From Candidatus Hadarchaeales archaeon (GTDB lineage Archaea > Hadarchaeota > Hadarchaeia > Hadarchaeales > Hadarchaeaceae): a DNA stretch of 64,000 bases. Position numbers and translations under genes: made by a program. This document shows positions 224-24,536 of the stretch, piece by piece. The notes under the pieces are model-generated. The model was not told the DNA's origin and did not search any database. It saw only the letters and a program-made list of their open reading frames with translations. Numbering within the stretch: position 1 is the first letter of the stretch; the number at the start of each line of letters is the position of its first letter. The stretch covers positions 69,351-133,350 of the forward strand of contig JAWBCC010000003.1 of the NCBI GenBank assembly GCA_038823825.1, written 5' to 3'.

Positions 224-940
224 TCACCAAGTCCCGAACATGAAATCTTGATACTCGACATATCTTTTGTAAAGGCGGGATCTCCTCCTTTTAACGTAAA
301 TTCCGGCGAGAACTCCGACGACTATTCCAATTAGATGGGCAAGGTTCGCGACCGAACTTTGCGGAAGAGTAAGAGCCATGAGGGCCGAGAGAATTCCAAA
401 GCCCGTGATGAACATCCAGAGGCGCATCGGAATGAAGAAAAAAAGGAGGACCGGGAGTCTAGGCATGATAACCGCTAGGGTTCCGAGTAGTCCAAGAATC
501 GCTCCGCTGGCCCCGAGGACGATGACGTCTGGAGGGCTAACTGAAAGCTGAGCGAGTGCGGCAATTACGCCTGAGAGGAAAAAGATAGCGAGAAAGTTTG
601 CCTTTCCTATTTTCATCTCTAGCATCGGGGAGAAGGAAATGAAGACGATAATGTTCACAAGCAGGTGGAGAATCCCCCCGTGTGCGAATATCGATGTGAT
701 GAGAGTCCACGGTCTCTCAGCCAGAGTTCTTCTTGATGGGCACAAATAGTAAAGAAAAGAATTCCTGTCTCCAGAAATAAAGTAGTTTTCGCCAAGACTG
801 ACTTCTGCAACGATCTGAAGGATGAAAACTCCAATTATTGCTGCGGTCAAGATATAAGTGGCAATGGGTCTTTCCAATCTGCGGAAGACGAAGCGCACAG
901 TTGATGGCTCGTATTCGACGTATCCAAATTCTATGCTCAT
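224..940 (-). CDS. Rhomboid family intramembrane serine protease
   Basis: Polytopic membrane protein. It has the GASGAILG catalytic serine motif (GxSG) and a downstream AHLIGIVVG histidine motif. It sits immediately upstream of nadA on the same strand. Confidence 0.8.
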
Positions 941-1021: not shown

Positions 1022-1099
1022 GGGCCGGTAGCTCAGCCTGGTATGAGCACTCGCTTGGCATGCGAGGGGTCGCGGGTTCAAATCCCGCCCGGTCCACCA
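1022..1099 (+). tRNA. tRNA-Ala (anticodon GGC)
   Basis: Cloverleaf drawn by hand. Acceptor stem is GGGCCGG/CCGGTCC with the G3:U70 alanine identity pair. Anticodon loop TTGGCAT gives GGC. T arm is GCGGG-TTCAAAT-CCCGC. CCA is encoded. Confidence 0.85.
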
Positions 1100-1109
1100 A
1101 TTCTATTTT

Positions 1110-4100
1110 TTGTTGAATAAGAGGTGTTTAAATACCCCTAAAGGGATTGGTTTTGGTGCAAACGTGGATGAAAGTGGTAGTAATGTGCTGAGCACCTTTT
1201 TTGGTACATTGCTTTTAATATCGCTTCTCGCCTTCTCTGTTTCGTTTGTGTTTCTGTTTTCTGCGAGAACGGTTTCCGCATCGCCTGACTCTCACGCTCC
1301 GATATACATAGTTGGGAATGAAAACTTCACGCCTGCAAACGGTGTTCGCTCGGGTTCTGGAACCGAAACAGATCCTTACATAATCGAGAACTGGGAAATC
1401 GATGCTTCCACGGGACACGGGATCCACATTAAAAACACCACTGCATATTTCGTAATCAGAAATGTGTTGGTTGAGAACGGGAGCGGTGCTTACTATGGGA
1501 TTTATCTAGAAAACGTGGTTAACGGCAGGCTCAGTAATAACATCGTGGGGAACAACGAGTGCGGTATTTATCTATACTCCTCAGACAATAACACTCTCTC
1601 GGGGAACGTCGTTGAGAACAACGAGACCGGTATTTACCTTGACAATTCCAACAGCAACTTTCTCTTCGGCAACATCTTGGCGAACAACGGCACCGGCATC
1701 TTGCTCATTTATTCAGAAAATAATACTCTATCGGGAAACAATTTGGAGAACAACGAGTACTACGGTGTTGATCTATACTACTCCGACAACAACACAATCT
1801 CCGGGAACAACATAGAAAGGTCATGGGACACGGGAATATGCATTGATGAGTCATCCGAAAACAACTATTTGAGCAACAATCAGATTAGACAATCTGATTA
1901 TGGTTTTTATTTTTACTACTCCGGGAACAACTTTTTAGAAAATAATCTGGTTGAAAACTCTTCATACTCGGCGATATGGATAGATCACTCCGAAAATATA
2001 AAAATGCGGAAAAATGTGATGAAATTAGGACCCAGCCTCGTTATACAGGGCGGGTACCTCTTCCATTTCCTTCACGATATCGACAACTCAAATCTCGCGA
2101 ACGGAAAGCCAATCCTCTATTTGACAGGGAAGGAGAACAACCTCGTGATCAACCAGGACAACAAAGTGGGATGGCTCGGTCTGGTGAACTCCGAGAACAT
2201 GCGGGTTGAAAACATTGTCGTTGAGTCCATTCTGCTAGCTTTTACGTCAAAAAGCAAAATCGAGAACGTAATGGTTGAAAATGGATACTATGCAATCGAA
2301 CTTTTCAAATCTTCCAACAATAGAATTCTGAGATCTTACATTGCTAGGGGTTTATATGGCATCTATTTACAAAACTCTCCCAACAATTTGATCTCTAGCT
2401 GCGAACTGGAAAGATCTTACTATAGTGTATGTGTCACTTATTCCGATAACATCGAAATCTCAAACAACATCGTGAGAATTGCGAGCCTTGGCATATATCT
2501 CTATCAGTGCGACAATATGGTTATCGCGGGAAACACGATTCGAGACATCGAAAATTTTGCGGGAGTTGAGAGCTTTAAACTCACTAATAGCAGGATTTCA
2601 AATAACAGCTTTATCAACGTTTCTGCTCAGTATGTGATTGTCAGTTACGGCTATTCTGAAAATATTTCTATTACCGGAAATATTATCGGAGGAGGAGGCA
2701 ATTATTATGGGATATACACCGAACATTGGAATGAAGCGTTTATCTGTGGGAATACTATCGAGAACAACGTGGTCGCGGGCATATATCTCCATAGCCCTGA
2801 AAATTGCACAATTGAGAACAATATCTTAAGAAACAACCCAACTGGTATTTCTCTCTCCTACAATGCGAAAAGCAACAAAATTTCTGGGAACTGGCTGGAA
2901 AACAACAATAACTCCTCTCTCAGTATAACGAGTTATTCGGATAACAACAGGATAGTAAATAACACGATTAAGAAAAGTTCAGAGATGCGCATTAATTGGT
3001 CTAATTTCATCACGGTGGAAAATAATACAGTAGAAGACAGTTCCGGCTTCGCGTATTTATACTCATCCGACAACAATCTCATCTCAAACAATAAAATAAC
3101 GAATGTTATTAGCGGGATAACCATGAGCACTTCTTGCGAGTACAATAGAATAGAAAACAACTTTATTACTAAAGTAGCTACTAGCGGGGTCTTGCTAATG
3201 AGCACTAATTGTCAGTGGAACAAGATCTCTGGAAATAAGATTGAAAATTCCAATTGGGGCATAGAGGTAAGTTATAAAAATAACGAAATCTTTTCGAACG
3301 TGGTGAAGTTTTCAAGTAAAGGAATTTATGTCTATGGACAGTCGGATAATACCACAATCTTCGGAAACATTTTGGAGAATAATGAGGAGGGCATCCGCGT
3401 ATCTAACTCAAAGGCAGAAATCACGGGGAACGATTTAAAGGGAAACACTTATGGAATTTACCTAGCGACAAAAACAACCACTGTCTTGCATAATACGATA
3501 GTGGATGGCAATTATGGAATTTATTCATACTACTCCGAAAACATTCTGATCGAAAACAACGTAATAGAGAGAAATTTGCTCGCAGGCATCTATTTTGATA
3601 GTTCAAAGAGCAATTTGATCGAAAACACCAAGATAGAAGGAAACGTTCAGTACGGCATATATCTTTTCTACTCGGATAACAACAGAATTCTAAACAACGA
3701 TATCTTGAGCAGTTATCAAGGAATGTATCTATATCAGTCTAAGGACGCTGTGATCTCCGGTAACAGAGTGGAAAATAATGAGCAGGGAATATATCTTATG
3801 TACTCGAGTAAGGACAACATTCTAAACAATACTATACGTAGCAATAAATTTGGCGTTCTAATCGTCTGGGCTTCGTTAAATAATATAGTTGAGAACAACG
3901 AGGTCGATAGCAACCGGACCGGTGTGTATCTGTTTGGATCAAAATCTAACATCCTCCGCAGCAACAAAATCCTGTGGAGCACGGACACCGGGATAGGCGT
4001 TTACAATAATGCGGAGCTTAACAGGCTGGAAAACAATACCTGCGAGAACAACGCATTTGGGATTCGCTTGGACACGGCGAAAAAAACCATTTTGAGAGGC

Positions 4101-7028
4101 AACAAACTCGAGAATAACGTTTGGTATGGGTTGTTCGTCAGCGGCTACCAGATGGACTACTACGACCACGATATCGACAACTCGAACGAACTCAACGGAA
4201 AACCGATTCTCTATCTGGTGGGAGAAAACAACATAGTGATTAACCAAGACAACGATCCGGGCTTTCTAGGTCTCGTAGGTCTGGAGAATGTGAGGGCGGA
4301 AAATCTACAACCGGAATCTATTCTTCTCGTATTTACCGAAAACGTTTTGCTTAGAAATCATGCCGCACGCAGTCTCATTATGTGTTTTTCTGAAAACTGT
4401 AGACTAGAAAATAGCATCTCCGAGAACGGCATGTTTGGCATTTTAATTTGGTGGTCTAGAAATCTAACACTCCGAGCGAACCAAGCAAGAAACTGTCTCT
4501 ATAATTTTGGCGTCGAAGGATGGGAGCTTCCTCATTACCTACATGATATTGATAACTCGAACTCGGTAAACGGGAAACCGGTCATCTATCTGATAAACGA
4601 AAACAACATCACGATTGAGCAGGGCGATCAGCCGGGTTACTTGGGCCTCATTAATCTGAGCAGCGCGAAGGTTAAAGATGTCAAATTTGAGAAAAACTGT
4701 CAGGGAATTCTGCTTTTCAGCGTAGAGAACATAGAAATCGAGAATGTCGATCTCAAAGCCAACTGGTTAGGTCTGGAGGCCAGCTTTTTGAAAGGTGGCG
4801 AGGTTAGCAACAACAGGATCGAAAATAACCTTGAAGGTTGCGTAATCCGGGATTCGAATAGCAATCTTTTCCATTCGAACATAGTGAGGAATAACCAAGA
4901 AGATGGTTTTTTGGTGAAAACTTCGGAAAACATTGTTTTCAGCGGAAACTTCGTTGAGAACAGCAATTATGGTATTAATGCATCCGAAACGGACAACATT
5001 ATCATCACCGGGAACACAATAGAGCACACCTCAGAGTTTGGAATATACCTCGATATGATTTTAGGTGGCAGCGTGACTTTCAACAATTTGCGGAACAATC
5101 AAACCGGAATTAGAGTTGACAGCGGCAGTCGATTGGTTATTTCCTACAACGTTATTGAGAACAGCTCGGATCGAGATATCATATTTAATGGAGAAAATTC
5201 TGTTTTCGAGGCAAACGTCTACACAACAGCAGACGGCATTCCTCACATACATTCAGTTTCTGTTACGAACATCACGCAGACATCTGCAACGATAACTTGG
5301 GTTACTGATGAGGACTCAACAACCGTTGTAGAATACGGACCAACAACGGCATACGGATACACCGCCACCGATGGTGTGACGAAAAACCATCAGGTGAACC
5401 TCTCCAACCTTTCACCTGGAACAATCTACCACTTCCGCGTCCTTTCAACCGACAGTGAAAACAACCTTGAGATATCAAGGGACTTCACCTTCATGACGGC
5501 TTCACCTCCACCTCCACCGCCCCCACCGCCTCCTCCACCTGCCCAGATCTCAACATCCATAACGATCGAGCCATTTGCCTTCTCCATTGTCTCAGGAGGT
5601 TCTAGAGAGATAACAGCCATTCTGAGGGATAACGGAGGGAACCCGCTTTCCGGAAAGACGATATCGTGGAGCACAACCGCTGGAACAATAACCCAGACGA
5701 GCGTGACAGACAACCTTGGGAGGGCAATCGCAACCTTCACGGCTCCTGTTGTCACGCGAGTGGAAAATGTGACTATCACGGCAACATTTGCTGGTGATGC
5801 AAGCTATTTGGGGAGTCAGGCAAACGCCCTATGTACGGTTTCTCCAACTCCTCTCATCCCAACAACCTTGAGAATTTCACCGCCAAGTTTCACAGTCAGA
5901 GTTGGTGGAAGGACAACACTGACCGCAATCCTCTTGGATAACGCTGGAAATCCGCTCCAAGGGAAGCAGATAGTTTGGAGCACAAATTCCGGTTCGATTG
6001 AACCGATGAGCGGTCTCACGGACAACTACGGGAGAATGGAGGTGACGTTTTTCGCACCGTCGGTCAGCGGATCTGTTGAAATCGGAGCTATGTTCGCAGG
6101 AGATTCCACACATACTGGAAGCCAAGCTGCATGTGAGGGAACCGTTTCCCCTCTTCAGGCCAGGATAGACATAACTCCTGATGTCATCTACAGAGGTTCC
6201 CTGCCACGCTGGATCTTCTGCTACATAGAGATCCCGGAGGAGAATGTGGAAGAGATAGATGTTGGCAGCGTTAGGCTTCAGCAAATTCCTGTTGATCCTA
6301 GCGCTCCGACGTCAGTCGGAGATCATGACGGGAACGGAATCCCAGACATTCTTCTAGGATTCAGCTCCCAGGCTCTTGCGCTTCCAGATTCCCCGGGCAT
6401 TCTGCAACTTTCCGTCATCGGATTCGTTAAAGGACTGGAGTTCAAAGGCACAACCGCTGTCCTTTACACAACCATTTCAGAAAACTTGAAGCCGATGATT
6501 TTTATTTTAGAAAACCTCCAGCCCGGCTCCTGGCCGGTTTTCTTGGAAAACATCTCTCTAAACCGGATTGACATCATCCTCGAGAACTATAGGGAAAGAG
6601 CCCAGCTCTTTGTTCTAGAACTTTTCAGTCCTCCGGAGGGAATTCCTTCGGCCCCAGGAATAGTCTACAGATATCTCTTGATAACCGTGGAGAACCTGGA
6701 GGAGGTAGAAAACGTTTCCCTGACTTTTGCCGTAAGCCGCTCTTGGATTTCCTCCTCAAACATCTCTGAAAATCTGATTTTCCTAAAGAGATTCGACGCA
6801 TCTGAAAACATATGGGAAAACATACCGATCACGTTGGTCGGAGAAGATGAAAGCTACGTCTACTTCCGTGCAAACTTGCGAGGTTTCTCTCTTTTTGCTA
6901 TCTCCGGTCTCCCCGCAGCTGCGCCTAAACCAGAGGCCAAGCCAAGGACTGAGATCCTGATAGCTGTGATCGTCGTCATTATCATAATCCTTCTTTTTAT
7001 CCTAATCTCTCTTAGGAGAAGGCAGTGA
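1110..7028 (+). CDS. Giant secreted cell-surface protein (1972 aa). It has a signal peptide and many right-handed parallel beta-helix (PbH1/NosD-like) repeats. A ~130-aa module is present three times. These are followed by an FN3 domain, a poly-proline linker, two bacterial-Ig-like (Big) domains and a C-terminal TM anchor with a basic tail.
   Basis: Repeated N-rich motifs NNxxxGIYLxxSxNN throughout. The module HDIDNSNxxNGKPILYLxxENNxxINQDNxxGxLGL occurs at aa ~305, ~1015 and ~1150. VTNITQTSATITWVTDED...YHFRV is FN3-like. SPPPPPPPPPPPPPA follows. Two ITAILxDNxGNPLxGKxIxWST Ig-like repeats follow. The C-terminus is ...ILIAVIVVIIIILLFILISLRRRQ. The real start is probably the in-frame GTG at 1185 (signal peptide VLSTFFGTLLLISLLAFSVSFVFLFSARTVSA), because a TATA-like tttaaata lies at 1127-1134 inside the annotated 5' end. 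Confidence 0.8.
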   Translation: MLNKRCLNTPKGIGFGANVDESGSNVLSTFFGTLLLISLLAFSVSFVFLFSARTVSASPDSHAPIYIVGNENFTPANGVRSGSGTETDPYIIENWEIDASTGHGIHIKNTTAYFVIRNVLVENGSGAYYGIYLENVVNGRLSNNIVGNNECGIYLYSSDNNTLSGNVVENNETGIYLDNSNSNFLFGNILANNGTGILLIYSENNTLSGNNLENNEYYGVDLYYSDNNTISGNNIERSWDTGICIDESSENNYLSNNQIRQSDYGFYFYYSGNNFLENNLVENSSYSAIWIDHSENIKMRKNVMKLGPSLVIQGGYLFHFLHDIDNSNLANGKPILYLTGKENNLVINQDNKVGWLGLVNSENMRVENIVVESILLAFTSKSKIENVMVENGYYAIELFKSSNNRILRSYIARGLYGIYLQNSPNNLISSCELERSYYSVCVTYSDNIEISNNIVRIASLGIYLYQCDNMVIAGNTIRDIENFAGVESFKLTNSRISNNSFINVSAQYVIVSYGYSENISITGNIIGGGGNYYGIYTEHWNEAFICGNTIENNVVAGIYLHSPENCTIENNILRNNPTGISLSYNAKSNKISGNWLENNNNSSLSITSYSDNNRIVNNTIKKSSEMRINWSNFITVENNTVEDSSGFAYLYSSDNNLISNNKITNVISGITMSTSCEYNRIENNFITKVATSGVLLMSTNCQWNKISGNKIENSNWGIEVSYKNNEIFSNVVKFSSKGIYVYGQSDNTTIFGNILENNEEGIRVSNSKAEITGNDLKGNTYGIYLATKTTTVLHNTIVDGNYGIYSYYSENILIENNVIERNLLAGIYFDSSKSNLIENTKIEGNVQYGIYLFYSDNNRILNNDILSSYQGMYLYQSKDAVISGNRVENNEQGIYLMYSSKDNILNNTIRSNKFGVLIVWASLNNIVENNEVDSNRTGVYLFGSKSNILRSNKILWSTDTGIGVYNNAELNRLENNTCENNAFGIRLDTAKKTILRGNKLENNVWYGLFVSGYQMDYYDHDIDNSNELNGKPILYLVGENNIVINQDNDPGFLGLVGLENVRAENLQPESILLVFTENVLLRNHAARSLIMCFSENCRLENSISENGMFGILIWWSRNLTLRANQARNCLYNFGVEGWELPHYLHDIDNSNSVNGKPVIYLINENNITIEQGDQPGYLGLINLSSAKVKDVKFEKNCQGILLFSVENIEIENVDLKANWLGLEASFLKGGEVSNNRIENNLEGCVIRDSNSNLFHSNIVRNNQEDGFLVKTSENIVFSGNFVENSNYGINASETDNIIITGNTIEHTSEFGIYLDMILGGSVTFNNLRNNQTGIRVDSGSRLVISYNVIENSSDRDIIFNGENSVFEANVYTTADGIPHIHSVSVTNITQTSATITWVTDEDSTTVVEYGPTTAYGYTATDGVTKNHQVNLSNLSPGTIYHFRVLSTDSENNLEISRDFTFMTASPPPPPPPPPPPPAQISTSITIEPFAFSIVSGGSREITAILRDNGGNPLSGKTISWSTTAGTITQTSVTDNLGRAIATFTAPVVTRVENVTITATFAGDASYLGSQANALCTVSPTPLIPTTLRISPPSFTVRVGGRTTLTAILLDNAGNPLQGKQIVWSTNSGSIEPMSGLTDNYGRMEVTFFAPSVSGSVEIGAMFAGDSTHTGSQAACEGTVSPLQARIDITPDVIYRGSLPRWIFCYIEIPEENVEEIDVGSVRLQQIPVDPSAPTSVGDHDGNGIPDILLGFSSQALALPDSPGILQLSVIGFVKGLEFKGTTAVLYTTISENLKPMIFILENLQPGSWPVFLENISLNRIDIILENYRERAQLFVLELFSPPEGIPSAPGIVYRYLLITVENLEEVENVSLTFAVSRSWISSSNISENLIFLKRFDASENIWENIPITLVGEDESYVYFRANLRGFSLFAISGLPAAAPKPEAKPRTEILIAVIVVIIIILLFILISLRRRQ

Positions 7029-9263: not shown

Positions 9264-10229
9264 TCACTTTTGGGTCTCGAAAATACATTCCTCAGGAGAT
9301 TTGTCTCTTCTTAGGCGCAAAAAAACAGGGGCTCTTAACTTGAGGTCATCAGTTACTTCTAGAAATCTCACCTCACAGACGAACTCTGGTCTAACCCATC
9401 GGACTTCGTAAGGTGGTTCCTCTTCAACTGGTTTTTCTGGAACTTCGATTTTTTTGAGTTCTGATGTGAGATATCTGATTGTTTCCTCATCAAATCCAGT
9501 TCCAACCTTCCCAAGGAAAATCAACTTTTCACGATCGTACGCTCCTATCGCAAGTGCTCCGAAGTAATCCTTCCGTTCTCCTTCCCCCGGCGTATAGCCC
9601 AAAATCACGCAGTCCATCGTCTTGAAAGTCTTGACCTTTATCCAATCCTCGCTTCTCTTCCCCTGCTGATAGGTGCTCTCGAGCTTCTTACCCATCACTC
9701 CCTCCAATCCCATCGCTTTTACGCTCTCCCACAGTCTTCTGCCATCCTCAGTATACATGCAGAGTCTCAGACGTTCGCTTTCTTTCACGATCTCTGAAAG
9801 TTTCTGCTTTCTTTCTCTGAGTGGTTTGTTTGTCATATCTTCTTCATTGGCAAGCAGAACGTCGAACGCGAAAATAACAGCCGGGTACATTTTGGAAAGT
9901 AGCTCTATTTTGAGTGGATGCTCCTGCTGTTCTCTAAGCTGCAAGAGTTGAAAATCTGGCTTGTTGTTTTTATCGAGCACAACGATCTCGCAGTCGAGAA
10001 TGCAGGGGTCGGCGAGGATGTTTCTGTGAATGCCTGAAAGTTCAGGATATCTGTGTTCAATCCACTTCTTTCTTCTGTTCAGAATTTTTATCCTCTCACC
10101 TTTTTTGTAAACGATCGCTCTTGTTCCGTCGAGCTTAGGTTCCCAGATGTAGTGGGGTTTGCTGAGATCATTTTCGCTTCCCAGCCTTGCAAGCATCGGG
10201 CTTATGATGGGTGGCCAGTCTGAGTTCAT
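9264..10229 (-). CDS. ligD: ATP-dependent DNA ligase, LigD ligase-domain type (NHEJ ligase)
   Basis: 321 aa with the KLDGTRAIVYKKG motif I (KxDG). Size matches a stand-alone LigD LigDom. It overlaps the upstream Ku gene by 4 nt (ATGA), which indicates an operon. Confidence 0.8.
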   Translation of the reverse strand: MNSDWPPIISPMLARLGSENDLSKPHYIWEPKLDGTRAIVYKKGERIKILNRRKKWIEHRYPELSGIHRNILADPCILDCEIVVLDKNNKPDFQLLQLREQQEHPLKIELLSKMYPAVIFAFDVLLANEEDMTNKPLRERKQKLSEIVKESERLRLCMYTEDGRRLWESVKAMGLEGVMGKKLESTYQQGKRSEDWIKVKTFKTMDCVILGYTPGEGERKDYFGALAIGAYDREKLIFLGKVGTGFDEETIRYLTSELKKIEVPEKPVEEEPPYEVRWVRPEFVCEVRFLEVTDDLKLRAPVFLRLRRDKSPEECIFETQK

Positions 10230-11044
10230 ACCTCGGTTACCTTCTTCTTTTCAGCGATTCGTAAACTCTCCTCTAGGGCTTTCATGAGATCCACGGTTGT
10301 CGGTGCTTCGGCCGGTTTCTCAAGTTTTATAGCAGCTCCTTCAGCCTTTCCTCTGATCAATTCGAGCAACGCTTCCCGGTATGCATCTTTAAGTTCCTCT
10401 GGTCTAAATTCTCCTTTCATCTGCTCTATCAGCTTTTTAGCAAGATCTCTTTCCCTATCCGAGGTTTCCGGAATTCTCTGGATTTCTGTCAGTTCATCTG
10501 TAGGAACGATTTCGTCGAAATAGTGAAGAAGGGTTAGATGAAGACAGTTCTGTCCGGGCCTTATCACAACCGGATATTCTTTATTCCGAAGGGTGAGCTT
10601 CCCGAGAGCAGCGGACCCTGTCTCTGCGAGAGCATGGAAAAGCAATCCATAAGCTCTCTCTCCACCCTCCTCGGGAGCGACGTAGTAATGCTCAGAGAAG
10701 TAAGTCACGTCTATGTCTCTAATTTCAATGAAATTCGAAATTTCAATGATTTTTGTGCTTTTAACTTTAATACCTTCCAATTCTTCTTCTGTTACTTCGA
10801 TAAACTTATCTTTAGCAAGCTCGAATGCCTTTACGAGTTCTTCGTCTGCAAGTTCTTTCTGGCATTTTGTGCACCACTTCTTGTATTTTACCGGTGTTTT
10901 GCACTCCTTGTGAATTAGATGAAATGAGATAGACTTGTCTCTCGTTGCTTTGTAAAGCTTGACGGGTATGTTGACGAGACCGAAAGATATTGCTCCTCTC
11001 CAAATTGCTCTAGGCATATCCTTCCCCCAAAAGAAACCTTCCAA
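10226..11044 (-). CDS. ku: Ku DNA end-binding protein
   Basis: N-terminus MPRAIWRGAISFGLVNIPVKLYKATRDKSISFHL is the canonical prokaryotic Ku start. 272 aa with an acidic/basic C-terminal tail. Confidence 0.85.
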   Translation of the reverse strand: MEGFFWGKDMPRAIWRGAISFGLVNIPVKLYKATRDKSISFHLIHKECKTPVKYKKWCTKCQKELADEELVKAFELAKDKFIEVTEEELEGIKVKSTKIIEISNFIEIRDIDVTYFSEHYYVAPEEGGERAYGLLFHALAETGSAALGKLTLRNKEYPVVIRPGQNCLHLTLLHYFDEIVPTDELTEIQRIPETSDRERDLAKKLIEQMKGEFRPEELKDAYREALLELIRGKAEGAAIKLEKPAEAPTTVDLMKALEESLRIAEKKKVTEV

Positions 11045-11469: not shown

Positions 11470-11537
11470 TCTGTCTGAGTAAGGGTTATATATTGCGGTT
11501 CATCATAAAAATGATAAAACGAAAAGGTGATCATCTG

Positions 11538-12554
11538 ATGCACAAGATACTCCCGAAAGAGAATTTGAGAAATTTTTTTGAAAAGCTGAAAGAGCTTGGA
11601 GAGGTGCACGCTCCCGTTAGACGCGGAACTATCTTCGCTTTTTCCAAGATAGAGTCCGTTGAACAAATCGAGTTTTCTTACGTAAGAACGATGATACCAC
11701 CAAAAAAATATTTCATTCAGACTTGTGAGGAGATCCTTAGGTTTACGCCGGATAAGGGTTATTCTCCGGTTACTACGGAAACTAAAAAAGTGGTTTTGTT
11801 TGGTGTTCATGCTTGCGATATTAATGCGATTAAAATTCTAGACAATGTGTTTTTGGAAGAGCCGGTCGATCTCTTTTATGAGGAGAGGAGAAAAAACACA
11901 TTTATAGTTGGGATTTCATGCGAACCAGACGATTTTTGCTTCTGTAAATCTGTGGGTGCTGACTCTGTTCAGGATAATTATGATCTTTTTTTGTACGACC
12001 TCGGGGATAGATACCTCATCGATACGGGAAGCAGAGCAGGTGAGGAGTTTCTTTTAAGTCTTAACCTGCAGAATCCGACTTCTACGGATTTTGAAGTCTT
12101 AAGAAAAATGCTTTCTGAGCGTGATCTGAAGTTCAAAAAAACTCTTAATGCTCAGGGTCTTGCGCAGATAGTAGACTCGAACCCATCTAGCGAGGTGTGG
12201 GGGAGATATGCTGAAAAATGTCTTGCCTGTGGAGGATGTACTCTCGTTTGTCCAACTTGTCGCTGTTATTCGATCGATGAGTTTAGAGATCTCTCGCTTG
12301 AAAAAAGCACAAGGACGAGAAGGTGGGATTCATGCTTTCTGAGAAGCCATGCTCTGGTTGCCGGTGGCTTAAACTTCCGTCCAACAAGGCTCGACAGATT
12401 TAGGCACAGATACAACTGTAAGAGTTCGATCGAGTGGAAATCTGGTGGACTCTTTTGTGTTGGATGTGGAAGATGCAGCGCCTTTTGTCCGGCGGGAATT
12501 GACCATGTGGAAGTTTTAAACAACCTTGTGCATCTTTCGGTGATGACGATATGA
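11538..12554 (+). CDS. hydB: Sulfhydrogenase / group 3b [NiFe]-hydrogenase beta subunit (Fe-S)
   Basis: From the ATG at 11538 (RBS AAAGGTGA), MHKILPKENLRNFFEKLKELGEVHAPV...IEFSYVRTMIPPKKYF closely parallels the Pyrococcus HydB N-terminus. Cys clusters CLACGGCTLVCPTCRC and CVGCGRCSAFCP are present. Confidence 0.8.
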   Translation: MHKILPKENLRNFFEKLKELGEVHAPVRRGTIFAFSKIESVEQIEFSYVRTMIPPKKYFIQTCEEILRFTPDKGYSPVTTETKKVVLFGVHACDINAIKILDNVFLEEPVDLFYEERRKNTFIVGISCEPDDFCFCKSVGADSVQDNYDLFLYDLGDRYLIDTGSRAGEEFLLSLNLQNPTSTDFEVLRKMLSERDLKFKKTLNAQGLAQIVDSNPSSEVWGRYAEKCLACGGCTLVCPTCRCYSIDEFRDLSLEKSTRTRRWDSCFLRSHALVAGGLNFRPTRLDRFRHRYNCKSSIEWKSGGLFCVGCGRCSAFCPAGIDHVEVLNNLVHLSVMTI

Positions 12555-13429
12555 CGTCTCTCCCACCCCTTCAAGTGCCGAAATTGGCAAAAATAGTTGA
12601 AATCGTTGAGATGACGGCGATAGAAAAAATGTTTAAGCTTGAGTTTCTTGATGGTAGCACTCTGAGCTTTAAGCCTGGGCAGTTTGTAGAAATCAGCGTA
12701 ATGGGAGTTGGAGAGGCACCGATTTCCATATGTAAATCGCCCACAAGATCTGGACCTCTCGAGATAATAGTGAGAAAGGTGGGAAGAGTGACAAAAGCTT
12801 TACATGCTATGAAGCCGGGCGATAAGGTCGGGGTTAGAGGACCATTCGGAAACGGGTTCCCGATGGAGAAGATGAAAGGAATGGATGTTCTGCTTGCTGC
12901 GGGAGGCCTTGGAATGGCACCGCTGAATTCGGTTCTCCAATATGTTCTGGATAAGAAAGAGGAATACGGGAAAGTAATTCTCATGTATGGGATCAGAAGT
13001 TATCAGGACGCACTTTTTAGAGAAGAGGTTTTTAAAATGCTTGAGAGCCAGACAGAACCGGTTGTGTTGCTCGCTTATGAGCGTGATGATCCTTTGCTCG
13101 CGAAGATTGCGGAGAAATATCCGCACAATGTTAGGAAAGGGGTGATAACCGTTCTCTGCAAAGAGTGTCTTCTTCCACACTTGAGAGCTGATAGAACGTG
13201 TGCGGTGGTTTGTGGCCCGCCGATCATGTATAAATTTGTGCTTAAGGAGTTGGTTGGTCTCGGAATACCCCCCGAGAGAATTTACATGACGCTTGAGAGG
13301 AGAATGGAGTGTGGAATGGGTAAATGTGGTCATTGTATCGTGGGCGGTGCATCGACAATCAGATATATTTGTAAAGATGGTCCGGTTTTTACGGGTGTCG
13401 ATGCTCTTACGATAAGGGGCTTGATATGA
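12551..13429 (+). CDS. hydG: Sulfhydrogenase gamma subunit (FAD/NAD(P)-binding, 2Fe-2S)
   Basis: FKPGQFVEISVMGVGEAPISICKSP, GPFGNGF and the C-terminal LERRMECGMGKCGHCIVG...YICKDGPVFT are almost motif-for-motif the P. furiosus HydG pattern. Confidence 0.85.
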   Translation: MTSLPPLQVPKLAKIVEIVEMTAIEKMFKLEFLDGSTLSFKPGQFVEISVMGVGEAPISICKSPTRSGPLEIIVRKVGRVTKALHAMKPGDKVGVRGPFGNGFPMEKMKGMDVLLAAGGLGMAPLNSVLQYVLDKKEEYGKVILMYGIRSYQDALFREEVFKMLESQTEPVVLLAYERDDPLLAKIAEKYPHNVRKGVITVLCKECLLPHLRADRTCAVVCGPPIMYKFVLKELVGLGIPPERIYMTLERRMECGMGKCGHCIVGGASTIRYICKDGPVFTGVDALTIRGLI

Positions 13430-14196
13430 AGCCGAAGGTTGGGTTTTACGAATTAACGGGTTGTGCTGGCGAAATGCTTCACATTTTGAATATGGAGGAT
13501 ATTTTAATTGATGTTTTTAGCAAAATCGATTTGGTCGAGTTCAGGATAGCGAGCAGTGTGAAGAGACCAGAAAGAGTTGACATCGCTTTTGTTGAAGGTT
13601 CTGTGACAACTGAGGAAAACTTGGAAGCCCTGAAGTCGATAAGAGAGAAGTCTGATGTTCTCGTTGCGATCGGAGATTGTGCCGTATGGGGAGGGATTCA
13701 GGCCTCCACAACCGGCGAGGATTGGAAGACATTGATGAAAGAAGTTTATGGTGTTGAGGAGAACTACTTCAGATTTCTGGGGGAGCATAAATCACTATCC
13801 GAGTGTGTGAAGGTGGACTATGAACTTCCGGGATGTCCGATTGAGCAAGACGAATTTGTCAGACTCTTCATCGAGCTTTTGGAGGGGATTGAGCCTAAAA
13901 TCAAGGATTATCCTGTTTGTGTTGAGTGTAAGATCAAAGAGATACCATGTCTTATCGTGGAGAAGAGAGAGCCATGTTTGGGTCCAATCAGTGTTGGGGG
14001 CTGCAAAGCCCGATGTCCATACTACGGAACACCGTGCATAGGTTGCAGAGGCCCCGTGAGGGAGGAGGCGAATGTCGCTGGAGAGGTTTCGACACTTGTG
14101 GAAAAAGGCTGGAGAAAAGAAGATATCGTGAAGAGGATGGAGCTTTTCGCCAAGAGATATAAGGATATTGAGAAACTTGTGGAGGTCAAAAAATGA
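13426..14196 (+). CDS. hydD: [NiFe]-hydrogenase small subunit (delta)
   Basis: Position and size (256 aa) fit. Cys-rich Fe-S ligand motifs (GCAGE, CPIEQDE, CVECK, GGCKARCPYYGTPCIGCRG) match a hydrogenase small subunit. Confidence 0.85.
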   Translation: MKPKVGFYELTGCAGEMLHILNMEDILIDVFSKIDLVEFRIASSVKRPERVDIAFVEGSVTTEENLEALKSIREKSDVLVAIGDCAVWGGIQASTTGEDWKTLMKEVYGVEENYFRFLGEHKSLSECVKVDYELPGCPIEQDEFVRLFIELLEGIEPKIKDYPVCVECKIKEIPCLIVEKREPCLGPISVGGCKARCPYYGTPCIGCRGPVREEANVAGEVSTLVEKGWRKEDIVKRMELFAKRYKDIEKLVEVKK

Positions 14197-15482
14197 GGGA
14201 AATCCTGGTTGAACATCTGGCGAGAGTTGAGGGTCACGGCAATATAAGAGTTGTTGTTGATAAGGAGAACGTTCGGGAGGTGAAGATGGAGATTTTGGAA
14301 GGACCAAGGTTTATTGAGAAAATTCTTGTTGGAAGGAGCATAGACGAGGCGCCGGACATAGTTGCAAGAATATGCTCGATTTGCCCGGATCCACACTCGG
14401 TTGCATGTGTGAACGCGATAGAGAAGGCCATAGGCTTTAGGCCGAGTGAACAAACGAGAGTTTTGAGAGAGCTTCAGCTTATATCGGATGTTATATCGAG
14501 CCATGCTCTTCATCTTTTCCTCCTAGCTCTTCCAGACTTTCTTGGTTATCCAGATGCAATTTCTATGGTTTCCAAGTATGGGAAGGAGGTGGCCTTGGGT
14601 TTGAAGGTCAAAAAGGCGGGGAACGTGATCAAGGAGGTTCTGACGGGCAGATCGGTTCACGGATGTACGGTAAAGCCGGGTGGATATACGAGAGTTCCGA
14701 CCCAGGAGGAATTAGAAAAGCTTGAAAAGAGTCTGGCGGAAGCGATGGATGGTGCAAGGCTTGCGGTGGATTTGTTTGCTTCTTTCGATCTTCCAGAGGT
14801 CTTCAGAGAGGAAAATATGTTTATGGCGGTTGATCCCGGGGAGGTTTACGGTTTTTCGGGTGAGCACATTTTAATATCGAATGGAGAGAGGAGACCTGTT
14901 GAGAATTATAGACTTCTAACGAATGAGAGGGTTGTTCCTCACTCAACCGCCAAGCACTCATATTATCAGGGCGAGTCCTTCATGGTTGGAGCTCTCGCTC
15001 GAATCCTTCTCAACAGGGGAAAGCTAAAGGGTGAAGCGGTGGAGCTGGCGGATAGAATTTGGGAGAAGCTGGATCCGAAGAATCCTCTGGCGAATAACCT
15101 CGCGCAGGCGTTGGAACTCGTGTATTCGGTTGAGAGAGCTATTGAGCTCATCGAATGGCTCCTTGATCATGGCATAGGGGAACCTAGAGGGGAGATGAAG
15201 ATAAAGGCTGGGGTGGGTGTGGCGGCAGTCGAAGCCCCTCGTGGAATTTTGTATCACTTTTATGAGGTTGACGGGGAGGGAAAGATAGCTCGTGCGGACA
15301 TAGTCACTCCCACTGCTCAAAATGCCGCGAACATTGAGAAATATCTGAGGATATCTGCGCAGAGACTTTTGGAGAGAGGAGTGGATAATCTCGAGCCTCA
15401 CCTTGAGATGCTTGTTAGGGCTTATGATCCGTGCATTTCCTGCTCGGCGCATCTTGTTAGGGTTGTGAGGTTGAACGAGTGA
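14193..15482 (+). CDS. hydA: [NiFe]-hydrogenase large subunit (alpha)
   Basis: N-terminal RVEGHG plus RICSICPDPH (L1 motif). C-terminal DPCISCSAH (DPCxxCxxH Ni-binding motif). 429 aa. Confidence 0.9.
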   Translation: MREILVEHLARVEGHGNIRVVVDKENVREVKMEILEGPRFIEKILVGRSIDEAPDIVARICSICPDPHSVACVNAIEKAIGFRPSEQTRVLRELQLISDVISSHALHLFLLALPDFLGYPDAISMVSKYGKEVALGLKVKKAGNVIKEVLTGRSVHGCTVKPGGYTRVPTQEELEKLEKSLAEAMDGARLAVDLFASFDLPEVFREENMFMAVDPGEVYGFSGEHILISNGERRPVENYRLLTNERVVPHSTAKHSYYQGESFMVGALARILLNRGKLKGEAVELADRIWEKLDPKNPLANNLAQALELVYSVERAIELIEWLLDHGIGEPRGEMKIKAGVGVAAVEAPRGILYHFYEVDGEGKIARADIVTPTAQNAANIEKYLRISAQRLLERGVDNLEPHLEMLVRAYDPCISCSAHLVRVVRLNE

Positions 15483-15910
15483 AATTTGTACTCTGTTTGG
15501 GCAGTTTCTTCGCCTCTGACGATGTTTTTGGTCTTCTCGTCGCAAAGGAGTTAACGAAAAAGGGCTTGAAAAATGTTCAGATCTGTGGTTCGGATCTTTC
15601 TCCGCTTATCTCGAGGATAGAAGAGGTGGAGACTCTGATAATAGTGGATGCCGTCGATTGGGGGGCAAAACCCGGGGAGATTTTTGTGAAAAATTTGGAA
15701 GAAATTGAGGATTTTTCAGGTTTGGTTACTCACGGCCTTTCTCCAATTTTTATTGTCAGGATTCTTAGAGAATTGACAGGGAAGCCGAAGGAGGTCTATA
15801 TCGTTGGAGTTCAACCAGCCAAAGTTGAGCTTGGTGTGGAAAGCTCTGAAGATATTGAAAAATCGGTTGAAGATGTTGTTGAAATAGTTTTGGATCTTCT
15901 CAAGTCCTGA
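15479..15910 (+). CDS. Hydrogenase maturation endopeptidase (HycI/HoxW family)
   Basis: 143 aa, N-terminus MKFVLCLGSFFASDDVFG, overlaps hydA by 4 nt. Typical placement and size for the large-subunit C-terminal protease. Confidence 0.75.
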   Translation: MKFVLCLGSFFASDDVFGLLVAKELTKKGLKNVQICGSDLSPLISRIEEVETLIIVDAVDWGAKPGEIFVKNLEEIEDFSGLVTHGLSPIFIVRILRELTGKPKEVYIVGVQPAKVELGVESSEDIEKSVEDVVEIVLDLLKS

Positions 15911-16454
15911 CCTTTCCCTTCTTGATGATCCCTTTTGTATCCATTATCGTGATGAAGGCTTCGGGGTCGGTTTTTCTAACAAGTTTGAGGAAGTCGGAAA
16001 GATGTCTTCGGGCTATGACTGACTGATAGATTAGTCTGTTTCCGCGCAATCCGCGTCCTTTGATTATTGTCATTGGGTAACCTGCATTTCTAAGGGCCAG
16101 TCCGATTTCTCTGCTTTTGGTCACTGAAATGACCTGAACTGTGACATGACCTACAGCCATTTTTTCCTCAATGTTTACGCCGAGGTAAGTTCCGAGTGCG
16201 TATCCTAGGGAAAAAGATATGAAATAGCTGATGCCGGCGAGACTGAAAGGAGCATCGAGGAAGTTCTTCAAAACGACCCCAAAGGTGATGAACCAGATTG
16301 TGGTCTCTAAAAAGCTCAGAAAAGAAGCACGAAATCTCTGGCCTCTGAGAACCCATATGTCTCTGACCGTTCCGATTGTGTTTTGCAGAAGTCGGGCAAA
16401 GAACACGGAAATGCAGACAGTGGATATCTTCAGTATTTCACTCATCAAAATCAA
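15900..16454 (-). CDS. DUF2179 / UPF0316-like membrane protein
   Basis: Two to three N-terminal TM helices followed by a conserved C-terminal soluble domain (VQVISVTKSREIGLALRNAGYPMTIIKGRGLRG) typical of the YitT/DUF2179 family. Confidence 0.45.
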   Translation of the reverse strand: MILMSEILKISTVCISVFFARLLQNTIGTVRDIWVLRGQRFRASFLSFLETTIWFITFGVVLKNFLDAPFSLAGISYFISFSLGYALGTYLGVNIEEKMAVGHVTVQVISVTKSREIGLALRNAGYPMTIIKGRGLRGNRLIYQSVIARRHLSDFLKLVRKTDPEAFITIMDTKGIIKKGKVRT

Positions 16455-16524
16455 GAAACATGAAAAATATTTAAAAAGAGATGCTTTTTATTATCGAGAA
16501 AAGAAGAATTGCAGAGGTGAAAAT

Positions 16525-16743
16525 ATGACAACAGATCTGGATCCAAGGACGCTGAAAGTTTATGAGACGATGAAGAAGCTCGGGGCTACCTCGCCAAACT
16601 CTCTGAAGACCGCGGACGACATAATGCGCGCCTGTGGTCTTCCGAAGAGCGTGGTGAACAACGCTCTAATGACTCTTGTGAACAAGGGTTATGCGAAGAG
16701 GGTGGCGAGGGAGAAGGCTGCCGGTTACTATCTTTTGAAGTGA
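16525..16743 (+). CDS. Small winged-helix DNA-binding protein (72 aa)
   Basis: The ATG at 16525 is preceded by a GAGGTGA RBS. The 5' part of the listed long ORF overlaps the opposite-strand membrane protein and is rejected. PNSLKTADDIMRACGLPKSVVNNALMTLVNKGYAKRV is a wHTH pattern. Confidence 0.45.
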   Translation: MTTDLDPRTLKVYETMKKLGATSPNSLKTADDIMRACGLPKSVVNNALMTLVNKGYAKRVAREKAAGYYLLK

Positions 16744-16806
16744 CTATTTTCCGGCACCTGGCCCTCCACAGTTTCTTTTTTCTTTTCTTTTTCCAAGGTT
16801 TAGCTG

Positions 16807-17916
16807 ATGAAAAGAGTGGGTGTTGCGGAGCTTCCTCTTCATGGCGGGAAATGTCCTCCTTGGCTTTTCGGCAGGATGAAGAGACTTGGGGGCGCTATTG
16901 CGGAGCTCATCGTCAGAGAGTACGGGAGGAAGGAGTTTCTCCGCAGGCTGGGAGATCCGTTTTTCCTCCAGTCTCTTGGTTGTGTTTTGGGTTATGATTG
17001 GCATAGCTCTGGTTTGACGACTGTGACGATGGGTGCTCTTAAAGAGGCACTTGCTGAGAGGGATCTTGGGATAGTCGTCTGCGGCGGAAAGGGTCTGGTT
17101 TCAAGGAGGACGCCGGACGAGATAGAGAAGGTTGCGGAGAAGTTCTCTTTCTCGACCGCGGAGAAGGAGAGGCTGAAGTATGCGAGTAGGATGGTTGCGA
17201 AGGTGGACAATGCTTGTGTTCAGGATGGATATCAGCTTTACCATCATACTTTCGTTTTGAGTGAGGATGGGGACTGGGCGGTTGTTCAGCAGGGGATGAG
17301 GGAGAAGTTTGCTAGGCGGTATCATTGGATATCGGAGGGTTTGAAGAGCTTCGTGGAGGAGCCGCATTCGGGGATAGCTGGAGAGAGAAAGGAGGATGTT
17401 GTTTTGGATATGACGGCTGAGGAGAGCGAAGAGGCGAGGAAGACGAGCGTGGATTTGGTGAGGGAGAACCCGAGGAGACTTCTCTCTTATGTTAGGGGTG
17501 CGGAGCAGAAGCTTTTGGATGAGTATCTGGAGAAGAAGCCGGAGGTTAAGGTTCTTCTCATGCCTGCGGGGCACAGGATATCGGAGTTGACGGAAAAGAC
17601 GATTGCGGCGCTTAAGAGGGCTTACGAGATTCAGCCTGAGAATTATGAAGAGCTAGTGGCAATAAAGGGAATTGGTCCGAAGGCGATAAGGGCTCTTGCT
17701 CTTGTCTCAGCGGTTATCTATGGGAAGCCGCCATCTTGGAAGGATCCTGTGAGGTATAGCTTCGCGCATGGAGGGAAGGACGGGATTCCGTATCCTGTTG
17801 ATAGGAAAACATATCAGACGACGATCGAGATTCTCGAAGAGGCGATAGAGGGAATGGAAGCTGGGAAGGAGGAGAAAATCCGAGCTCTTCGGAGACTTCA
17901 CGAGTTTGTTGGGTAG
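16807..17916 (+). CDS. DUF763 family protein
   Basis: N-terminal MKRVGVAELPLHGGKCPPWLFGRMKRLGG is the signature start of DUF763 (PF05559) proteins. 369 aa. Confidence 0.55.
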   Translation: MKRVGVAELPLHGGKCPPWLFGRMKRLGGAIAELIVREYGRKEFLRRLGDPFFLQSLGCVLGYDWHSSGLTTVTMGALKEALAERDLGIVVCGGKGLVSRRTPDEIEKVAEKFSFSTAEKERLKYASRMVAKVDNACVQDGYQLYHHTFVLSEDGDWAVVQQGMREKFARRYHWISEGLKSFVEEPHSGIAGERKEDVVLDMTAEESEEARKTSVDLVRENPRRLLSYVRGAEQKLLDEYLEKKPEVKVLLMPAGHRISELTEKTIAALKRAYEIQPENYEELVAIKGIGPKAIRALALVSAVIYGKPPSWKDPVRYSFAHGGKDGIPYPVDRKTYQTTIEILEEAIEGMEAGKEEKIRALRRLHEFVG

Positions 17917-18337
17917 TGCACAGCTGTGCATAATTTCGCTTCATTCACAAATTTGACTAGGGTTGAGTTCACAGCTGTGCATTCCCTTATAAACCGCTTT
18001 CAACTGATGGATCGGTGGGAGTGCACAGCTGTGCACGGTCGAGTAATTCTTTTCACGTGGGAGCTTAAGGAGAGCTCAAAATCTCGGCGTTGGTTTTACG
18101 CAAATCTCAGGCGACTGCTGGATGAGCTTCCGCGAAACAGCTGGTGTAAACTTGGGGGTTCGGTCTATCTCGTGGAAAAACGATATTCTGTGAGATTTCT
18201 AATGCTTCTCAAAAAGTTTGAAGGACCGGAACTAACGTGGTATTCGTTCGAGATAGTGCGTCAGGTTTGAGTTCACAGCTGTGCACAACGCCCCCGCTGA
18301 TCACGGGAAATCCCACCACAGCAGTGCACAGCTGTGC
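17917..18337. repeat. Array of five ~21-bp direct repeats, each ending in a perfect 14-bp palindrome T(G/T)CACAGCTGTGCA. They fall in two phased groups.
   Basis: Copies at 17917-17930, 17968-17981, 18022-18035, 18272-18285 and 18324-18337. Each is preceded by GGTTGAG/GGTGGGAG/GGTTTGAG-like flanks. Spacings are 51, 54 and 52 bp within groups. A 250-bp gap between the groups holds the body of a small ORF. Confidence 0.75.
18007..18270 (+). CDS. Hypothetical small protein (87 aa from the internal ATG) embedded in the palindrome array
   Basis: ORF track 17926..18270. The first 27 codons of the GTG-start version run through repeats 1-2 and are likely non-coding. The core RVILFTWELKESSKSRRWFYANLRRLLDEL...GGSVYLVEKRYSVRF has a beta-alpha pattern that loosely recalls Cas2/VapD-like ferredoxin folds. 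This is a weak pattern match only. Confidence 0.3.
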   Translation: MDRWECTAVHGRVILFTWELKESSKSRRWFYANLRRLLDELPRNSWCKLGGSVYLVEKRYSVRFLMLLKKFEGPELTWYSFEIVRQV

Positions 18338-18388: not shown

Positions 18389-18479
18389 GCCCGCGGTAGC
18401 TCAGCTTGGTAGAGCGGCCGGCTGTAGACCCGTCGGCCGAAACCGGCATGTCGGGAGTTCAAATCTCCCCCGCGGGACC
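18389..18479 (+). tRNA. tRNA-Tyr (anticodon GTA) with a ~14-nt intron at the canonical 37/38 position
   Basis: Acceptor CCCGCGG/CCGCGGG. D arm GCTC...GAGC. Anticodon stem GCCGG with loop CTGTAGA gives GTA. The 3' half of the anticodon stem (CCGGC) appears only after an inserted CCCGTCGGCCGAAA. T arm GGGAG-TTCAAAT-CTCCC. CCA encoded. Confidence 0.8.
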
Positions 18480-18502
18480 ATGAGTCCATTTCAATCGCCT
18501 GC

Positions 18503-24534: not shown

Positions 24535-24536
24535 AA

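Follow-up and report, generated by a model that had tools for sequence, protein, structure and literature searches.

This report concerns a single giant gene near the left end of a 64,000-nucleotide (64-kb) stretch of DNA, hereafter the window, from a Candidatus Hadarchaeales archaeon (assembly GCA_038823825.1, contig JAWBCC010000003.1, forward-strand positions 69,351 to 133,350). The gene is one unbroken open reading frame (ORF) of 1972 codons counted from a TTG, and the antisense ORFs within it are short (84-135 aa). We conclude that its product, the giant, is very probably a Sec-exported, type-I membrane-anchored surface protein, unexceptional within its very large archaeal family, with 953 homologs at E ≤ 1e-10. 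What carries this conclusion is what we observed of its domain content, its folds and the prevalence in its family of both a repeated module and a C-terminal tail. An earlier sequence-only reading had taken it for an adhesin or surface protein with a secreted beta-helix, carried on an Ig-type stalk and anchored in the membrane, a reading we can support; the two special traits it added, triplication within the gene and a novel anchor signal, turn out to be traits of the whole family.

We picture the protein as follows. After Sec export, the C-terminal helix would anchor it with the RRRQ tail inside the cell, and the distal part would be a rod of about 50 beta-helix rungs, the head most likely binding or modifying glycans or surfaces. 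Three conserved inserts of about 45 residues would punctuate the rung pattern without breaking the beta-helix. A stalk of one FN3 domain, a (Pro)12 spacer, two Big_1 domains and one Ig-like domain, which we count in all as six beta-sandwich domains plus the polyproline spacer, would keep the rod at a distance from the membrane. Outside the cell the chain would end with the PGF-pre-PGF domain, which leads through a 14-residue Pro/Ala/Lys linker into a single transmembrane (TM) helix and an RRRQ stop-transfer tail.

A beta-helix rod on a beta-sandwich stalk

The rod is a right-handed parallel beta-helix with rungs of the NosD/CASH type (Table 1). Taking as rungs PbH1-type repeats of about 22 residues above the cut-offs of family hidden Markov models (HMMs), we found matches to Pfam NosD (PF05048; E 1.9e-135, 449.5 bits against a cut-off of 23.6) and Beta_helix (PF13229; E 2.2e-122, 404.7 bits against 25.9), each in 9-10 stretches, and to NCBIfam TIGR03804 (250.5 bits, 13 stretches). 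The estimate of at least 40 turns made from the sequence is in keeping with our counts: a rung HMM trained on the giant itself matched 38 times, with about 36 of the matches plausible as rungs, and the length of the region (aa 64-1375) gives about 50. For aa 985-1385, AlphaFold2 (AF2) confidently models a beta-helix in which three-stranded turns recur regularly (pLDDT 95.3, pTM 0.91). The giant does not qualify as NosD proper, scoring 244.6 bits over 8 stretches against the TIGR04247 cut-off of 300, and no nos genes flank it among the neighbouring genes examined.

In characterised proteins the beta-helix fold binds or modifies polysaccharides. It is conceivable, if unlikely, that the rod is a surface-tethered polysaccharide lyase, epimerase or hydrolase for extracellular glycan breakdown or remodelling and not a purely adhesive or structural rod, a reading that fits alongside the proposed membrane anchoring. 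The best Foldseek matches of the beta-helix model are indeed enzymes, with the AlgG and AlgE epimerases, PL6 lyases and phage tailspikes (depolymerases) among them, and AlgG, AlgE, NosD and PL6 were returned at probability 1.00; there is also a weak NCBIfam AlgG match (E 3.9e-5). Glycoside hydrolases and lyases with a beta-helix head are frequent among the proteins with MAIN domains (microbial GAIN domains) described in a May 2026 preprint, some of them from Methanolobus (Brogan & Rudner, bioRxiv 10.64898/2026.05.12.724683, Table S3). The structural likeness is, however, generic only (TM-scores of 0.25-0.47 at 9-15% identity), and some 50 near-regular rungs are far above what the known beta-helix enzymes need.

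Behind the rod, Pfam recognises an FN3 domain (Pur_ac_phosph_N/fn3) and, twice, Big_1, as read earlier from the letters; the two Big_1 copies are 50% identical to one another. The polyproline spacer between FN3 and Big_1 is likewise present, with 12 prolines and not the 13 first counted, and homologs carry shorter Pro-rich linkers at its position. The "further domain" that had been placed after these exists as well, but not as a single domain: an Ig-like sandwich with a DHDGNGIPD loop, common to the homologs P0007, P0062 and P0159, is followed by the PGF-pre-PGF domain. The AF2 model of aa 1681-1972 (pLDDT 92.9) shows these two beta-sandwiches, an 11-residue coil and a 25-residue helix. P0159 has the same succession of Big_1, Ig, PGF-pre-PGF, linker and TM helix behind a different, repeat-rich N-terminal head, which marks this cassette as a portable stalk and anchor; short members of the PGF-pre-PGF family carry many other heads.

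This modularity bears on whether the giant is a lattice-forming S-layer protein, or the membrane-anchoring subunit of one, and not an accessory adhesin. Some archaeal S-layer anchors do have a TM anchor on a beta-sandwich stalk, and the giant is large, predicted to be secreted and so built; its gene also keeps its locus in every related strain that was recovered. We consider an S-layer role improbable: Pfam and NCBIfam scans returned no S-layer family domain, the family is highly modular and paralog-rich with shuffled heads and stalks, no close ortholog occurs outside the species (best identity 36%), and N-glycosylation sequons are not enriched (35 against 38.6 +/- 4.7 expected).

The membrane-proximal domain and the tail

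The domain next to the membrane matches PGF-pre-PGF (TIGR04213) at 72 bits against a cut-off of 28 (E 5.1e-20, aa 1847-1933), and a 91%-identical fragment in the databases (P0143) bears the NCBI name "PGF-pre-PGF domain-containing protein". In the AF2 model the domain adopts a twisted beta-sandwich resembling GAIN_B and ZU5. The Foldseek evidence is weak: the GAIN domain of BAI3 is the sole probability-1.00 match in the top 50, at E 0.012. A PGF-pre-PGF profile run against PDB sequences gave just chance matches to ribosomal proteins (E > 0.5).

Domains of the GAIN/ZU5 type cut themselves at H-[LF]|[ST], within the turn that leads into the final, embedded strand, and MAIN domains at HF|S, after which the fragments remain associated (10.64898/2026.05.12.724683). 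In the model of the giant, the last two strands (..YVYFRAN and SLFAISGL) are connected by an L-R-G-F turn that places F1926-S1927 at the corresponding point, as a candidate autoproteolytic site. The serine is 97% conserved in 179-180 family instances and occupies one of three invariant columns in 82 whole proteins, and the residue before it is F in 62% and L in 35% of the family. The tripeptides in 180 instances are GFS (88), GLS (46), SFS (18), SLS (5), HLS (4) and HFS (1). The HX(S/T) motif is thus missing from the giant, with Gly at the -2 position, and His stands there in just 5 of the 180 relatives. One of 35 members (..SSFSWFGISA) matches Pfam Peptidase_S68, the PIDD autoprocessing site, in register (E 0.0011, below the cut-off); the first ten members checked were negative for it. 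Neither ZU5, GPS nor Peptidase_S68 appears among the 25 families listed, of 204, for 82 members, each listed family being present in at least two members. Because the defining His is missing, we file the domain, by its modelled fold, as related to MAIN, GAIN_B and ZU5 and not as a proven member of that group.

We nevertheless put forward, tentatively and as a possibility we would not bet on, that PGF-pre-PGF is an archaeal branch of the GAIN/MAIN/ZU5 autoproteolytic fold, mostly His-less, which self-cleaves at F1926|S1927 and makes the ectodomain releasable by force. The strained P/R-G-[FL]|S turn would cleave itself without the canonical His, and the near-invariant Ser would be explained by this self-cleavage. 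An ectodomain of about 1870 residues would then stay non-covalently held on a 46-residue stub (SLFAISG, linker, TM helix and RRRQ) until mechanical load on the beta-helix rod pulled it off, and an intramembrane protease, for instance the neighbouring rhomboid, might then clear away the orphaned stub. The peptide SLFAISGLPAAAPK is the semi-specific product to be expected from such a cleavage. If this were so, thousands of PGF-pre-PGF surface proteins would be force-releasable and many archaeal envelope proteins would be shed under mechanical load, with a bearing on adhesion, on nutrient scavenging by subsurface archaea and on the evolutionary origin of adhesion-GPCR (G-protein-coupled receptor) mechanics.

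The C-terminus reads ...RGFSLFAISG-LPAAAPKPEAKPRTE-ILIAVIVVIIIILLFILISL-RRRQ, confirming the TM helix and RRRQ end that had been read there. The absence of a PGF tripeptide, also pointed out earlier, holds: no PGF motif occurs, and PGF-CTERM (TIGR04126) has no match in the whole protein at E ≤ 0.01 or in the tail (...ISGLPAAAPKPEAKPRTE-ILIAVIVV...RRRQ) at E ≤ 10. With neither P-G-F at the helix start nor a PGF-CTERM match, the giant is by its sequence not an ArtA-type substrate. VPXXXP-CTERM, PEF-CTERM and GlyGly-CTERM likewise gave no NCBIfam match on the tail at E ≤ 10, a scan in which HMMER filters may hide very weak matches, and there is no GG.

For the C-terminal 180 aa a word-indexed homology search returned just the fragment P0143, and an exhaustive search of representatives with aa 1767-1972 found 4381 PGF-pre-PGF relatives, the best 149 of which we examined for their tails. 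A plain TM helix with a basic tail ends 120 of these best 149 of 4381, and a true PGF-CTERM about 3-4 of them. PGF-pre-PGF far outnumbers PGF-CTERM in genomes of methanogens and anaerobic methanotrophic archaea (ANME), for example by 24 to 2 and 21 to 1 (PMC5244752). For 78 proteins the helix follows directly on the last strand of the domain. Their linkers have a median of 16 aa (17 in the giant, counted from the end of the FSLFAI strand) and are rich in T, P, E and A, with no linker position conserved across them; their helices have a median of 23 aa (20 in the giant), followed by a median of three K/R (three R in the giant), and PGF is present in one of the 78. In the full-length homologs nearest to the giant, too, the C-terminus is a TM helix with an RRRR-type tail and no PGF. 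Related strains yielded orthologs that are 95-98% identical and whose tails do not differ, and these are therefore uninformative on tail conservation.

Two points weigh against the giant as an ordinary Sec-exported, anchored family member. The best 150 representatives are biased towards relatives of the query, and the fraction with a plain TM helix may be lower family-wide; and the start codon is uncertain, hence also the n-region of the signal peptide.

The tail data favour an ordinary type-I anchor, in which the helix alone would hold the protein without any sortase-type signal; this is the "simple membrane anchoring" that the sequence-only reading had offered as the alternative to "a different sorting or anchor signal". 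The latter would make GLPAAAP-TM-RRRQ a novel sorting signal, cut by an archaeosortase-like or rhomboid/rhombosortase-like enzyme to leave a lipid-anchored or released protein, and we think it very improbable. A motif-like stretch, a TM helix and a basic cluster do have the shape of known sortase-type signals, and LPAAAP fits [VL]PxxxP superficially, but eight residues, including four charged ones, lie between it and the helix. The tail corresponds to the majority state of the family, without a conserved linker position or an HMM match. A rhomboid protease gene does lie immediately upstream on the opposite strand, yet no such neighbour accompanies the distant homologs P0004 and P0007. Within this genome a degenerate paralog retains the same tail, which common descent explains at 93.5% DNA identity. 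No other ORF in the window has a GLPAAAP-TM-RRRQ-like tail, and no exosortase or archaeosortase was identified among the window's multi-TM ORFs, of which two encode rhomboids, one a UbiA and one, judged by its GTPase-like N-terminus, a putative FeoB. A literature search found no papers linking Hadarchaeota with archaeosortases. A tempting false lead is thereby removed: a helix and basic tail after PGF-pre-PGF is the family default and no sign of a new sortase system.

A different anchor, LPT.P...(TM)...[IV]W[RK]Y[LIV]S.G.K, is conserved in P0009, P0144-P0149, P0159, P0163, P0212, P0272 and P0274. It is unlike the giant's tail and unlike the variable tails of the remaining family, and could be a lineage-specific retention or sorting motif or could reflect mere close relatedness.

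The repeated module, the gene start and the locus

Within the rod, segment queries against the whole protein recover three modules of about 120-130 aa that are mutual best internal matches (44-49% and 35-36% identity, E 1e-22 to 2e-27), although similarity among ordinary rung stretches is nearly as high. The module had been described as repeated three times in both protein and DNA, and it is the protein half of this that stands. A DNA repeat scan did not report the modules, their codon-aligned nucleotide identity is 46-52%, and blastn aligned only a 116-nt core between copies 1 and 2 (73%) and a 68-nt core between copies 2 and 3 (75%), with no alignment between copies 1 and 3. Module copies are 45-57% identical to copies in proteins of foreign organisms and 37-47% to one another. 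The motif is found in 60 of the 120 best homologs, with 1-4 copies each.

By structure, only the first third of the module goes beyond plain rungs, so that what had been seen as a distinct module is partly just that. The distinctive part, in the AF2 model, is about 45 residues long and consists of a one-turn helix, a D-I-D-N-S-N..N-G-K-P loop and a beta-hairpin (KP.LYL. / NN..I), and the normal rung pattern then sets in again; the beta-helix is continuous through the insert, and the remainder of the module consists of ordinary rungs. Across alignment A1 the residues N1151 and Y1160 do not vary, and D1148, G1155, K1156 and P1157 are at least 90% conserved. We might guess at a metal-binding loop or an inter-segment cap. 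The module is real, old and family-wide, and to judge from these identities its copies are old paralogs inherited as a family feature: a recent in-gene triplication, suggested by the mutual best matches and by copies 2 and 3 standing in tandem, is barely credible given the low DNA identity, copies that are no closer to each other than to foreign ones, and a tandem pair at the identical 125-aa spacing in the homolog P0005.

The first codons of the ORF overlap elements that belong upstream of a gene. A tRNA-Ala(GGC) gene, with a gene-encoded CCA end, finishes at 1099; the T-run of 1106-1111 extends into the nominal TTG start (1110); and within the first 25 codons lies TTTAAATA, an archaeal TATA-box-like element and putative promoter element that would place the transcription start near 1157. 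Because of this overlap the first 18 to 33 codons probably go untranslated, so the uninterrupted frame described earlier holds and its full 1972 residues probably do not. In-frame start candidates are GTG 1164 (codon 19), GTG 1185 (codon 26) and TTG 1209 (codon 34); DNA homology to a paralogous remnant starts at nt 1187, and public gene calls disagree, with 1926 aa on this contig and 1971 aa in a 97.8%-identical strain. The true start is probably between codons 19 and 34, and we take the protein as about 1940-1954 aa long. The predicted signal peptide has its hydrophobic core at aa 30-50 and a V-S-A|S site at aa 57/58, and the predicted mature N-terminus SPDSHAPIYIVGNENF aligns with the post-signal N-termini of the homologs P0005 and P0001.

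The remnant is a deletion derivative of the giant gene on the same contig, about 3-4 kb past the window's left edge. Three collinear pieces match window positions 1187-1480 (signal peptide and N-cap; 88%), 5250-5512 (FN3; 90.5%) and 6918-6979 (linker and TM helix; 93.5%), the whole beta-helix and stalk being missing. A frameshift divides it into ORFs of 112 and 125 aa, ending ...PEAKPRTEILIAVIVVIKMIILILLKYRKR, and we read it as a pseudogene or, alternatively, as a mini surface protein.

The neighbouring gene products, among them the rhomboid, deoxyhypusine synthase (DHS), the ligase of non-homologous end joining (NHEJ) and topoisomerase I, are exact matches to proteins of Candidatus Hadarchaeales metagenome-assembled genomes (MAGs; contig JAWBEW010000002.1 of GCA_038838825.1), and related strains show the same order of rhomboid, giant, cyclophilin-like, NUDIX, DHS, ligase and Ku. 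Of six related contigs, five (L004-L008) stop inside the giant gene and retain only 442-563 codons from its end. The beta-helix repeats are where assemblies break, as is usual for repetitive genes, and giant-type genes are thus systematically truncated in MAGs.

Two rhomboid genes lie within the 64 kb, with the tRNA-Ala between the giant and the upstream one. We set aside a link between rhomboid and giant: no rhomboid gene adjoins P0004 or P0007, and the second one stands elsewhere in the window. P0007 (contig L010), which is distantly related, has three beta-helix units, shares the giant's Ig-like domain and adjoins AcnX-UbiD-GHMP kinase genes, as does the giant's region in L001. It extends beyond the TM helix into a cytoplasmic segment that looks winged-helix-like by eye, which hints at signalling variants of the architecture.

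Farther along the window, genes for Ku and an ATP-dependent NHEJ ligase stand side by side (9264-11044, reverse strand); bacterial-type NHEJ is uncommon in archaea. An apparent type I restriction-modification operon occupies 19865-27545 on the forward strand, its HsdM and HsdR genes separated by intervening ORFs. GC skew on the forward strand reaches +0.25 to +0.27 at 12001-18000 and 20001-22000 against about 0.03 elsewhere, in zones that coincide with a forward-strand NiFe-hydrogenase-like operon (11493-15910) and with the start of the restriction-modification operon. A tRNA-Tyr gene of 91 nt (18390-18480, forward strand) suggests an intron or a long variable region.

Table 1. Features of the giant gene and its surroundings (window coordinates unless marked)
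Feature	Residues (aa)	Position (nt)	Strand	Basis
Rhomboid-family intramembrane protease, divergent from giant		224..940	-	Pfam E 8.6e-32
tRNA-Ala(GGC), directly upstream of giant ORF		1022..1099	+	ARAGORN, Rfam, sequence
Whole ORF, including doubtful first 18-33 codons		1110..7028	+	ORF list, public gene calls
TATA-box-like element TTTAAATA		1127..1134	+	direct sequence reading
Signal peptide, predicted	26-57	1185..1280	+	sequence; homolog N-terminus alignment
Right-handed parallel beta-helix, ~50 rungs	64-1375	1299..5234	+	Pfam, NCBIfam, rung HMM, AF2, Foldseek
Module copy 1 (HDIDNSN at aa 322)	310-439	2037..2426	+	segment self-comparison
Module copy 2 (HDIDNSN at aa 1020)	1008-1132	4131..4505	+	segment self-comparison, AF2
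Module copy 3 (HDIDNSN at aa 1145)	1135-1257	4512..4880	+	segment self-comparison, alignment A1, AF2
FN3-like domain (Pur_ac_phosph_N/fn3)	1381-1463	5250..5498	+	Pfam
(Pro)12 spacer	1466-1477	5505..5540	+	sequence
Two Big_1/Invasin_D3 Ig-like domains	1484-1580 and 1583-1680	5559..6149	+	Pfam, self-comparison
Ig-like (IPT/TIG-like) beta-sandwich	1681-1788	6150..6473	+	AF2
PGF-pre-PGF domain (TIGR04213), ZU5/GAIN_B-like beta-sandwich	~1796-1934	6495..6911	+	NCBIfam, AF2
Candidate autoproteolytic site in turn between last two strands	F1926-S1927	6885..6890	+	AF2, family alignments
Juxtamembrane linker PAAAPKPEAKPRTE	1935-1948	6912..6953	+	AF2, tail comparison
Single TM helix ILIAVIVVIIIILLFILISL	1949-1968	6954..7013	+	sequence, AF2
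Cytoplasmic RRRQ tail and stop codon		7014..7028	+	sequence
HsdM (N6_Mtase, E 1e-113)		19865-21646	+	Pfam
HsdR (HSDR_N, SWI2_SNF2)		24519-27545	+	Pfam
Second rhomboid-family protease		53222-53908	+	window scan
Deletion derivative of giant gene, left of window		L001 13603-14253	-	DNA alignment

Comparison with known systems

Among NosD-type or right-handed beta-helix surface proteins, known from Thermoplasmata, methanogens, Asgard archaea and other MAGs, the giant has the same rung type. Archaeal NosD-type proteins share its N-cap (PIYI.G...FT.ANGV..GSGT..DPYIIENW) and its HDIDNSN..NGKP module, and the closest also share the order beta-helix, FN3, Pro-rich linker and Big_1 and the TM helix with an R/K tail. 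They differ in that the best is only 36% identical, and P0001-P0010 use another membrane-proximal domain; compared with these ten, the giant alone joins a NosD-type head and stalk to an Ig-like and PGF-pre-PGF cassette. That cassette places it among the PGF-pre-PGF proteins, its domain scoring above the family cut-off and standing last before the C-terminal helix, and outside the PGF-CTERM/archaeosortase A system, both hallmarks of which, the P-G-F at the helix start and the PGF-CTERM match, it lacks.

The comparison that we regard as the remaining lead is with His-less GAIN-like juxtamembrane domains in archaea, for the fold match ties a widespread TIGRFAM domain without assigned function to the self-cleaving GAIN, ZU5 and MAIN domains newly described in microbes. 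MAIN domains sit between a large adhesive or enzymatic ectodomain and a surface anchor; Table S3 of the preprint labels them ZU5/GPS and lists Methanolobus beta-helix proteins that end in ZU5 and a Methanoculleus protein with ZU5 and then a TM helix (10.64898/2026.05.12.724683). The giant differs from MAIN proteins in that its anchor is a TM helix and not a sortase or SLH anchor, and from MAIN, GAIN_B and ZU5 domains alike in that the catalytic His of HX(S/T) is missing (R-G-F-S in the giant; GFS 49%, GLS 26%, SFS 10% and H[FL]S 3% in the family). What its family shares with them is a hydrophobic residue and a near-invariant Ser before the last embedded strand, S-x-F-A-[IV], and the giant matches the architecture of signal peptide, ectodomain, membrane-proximal sandwich and anchor that is common to MAIN proteins, to the GAIN_B domains of adhesion GPCRs and to the ZU5/FIIND domains of PIDD, NLRP1 and CARD8.

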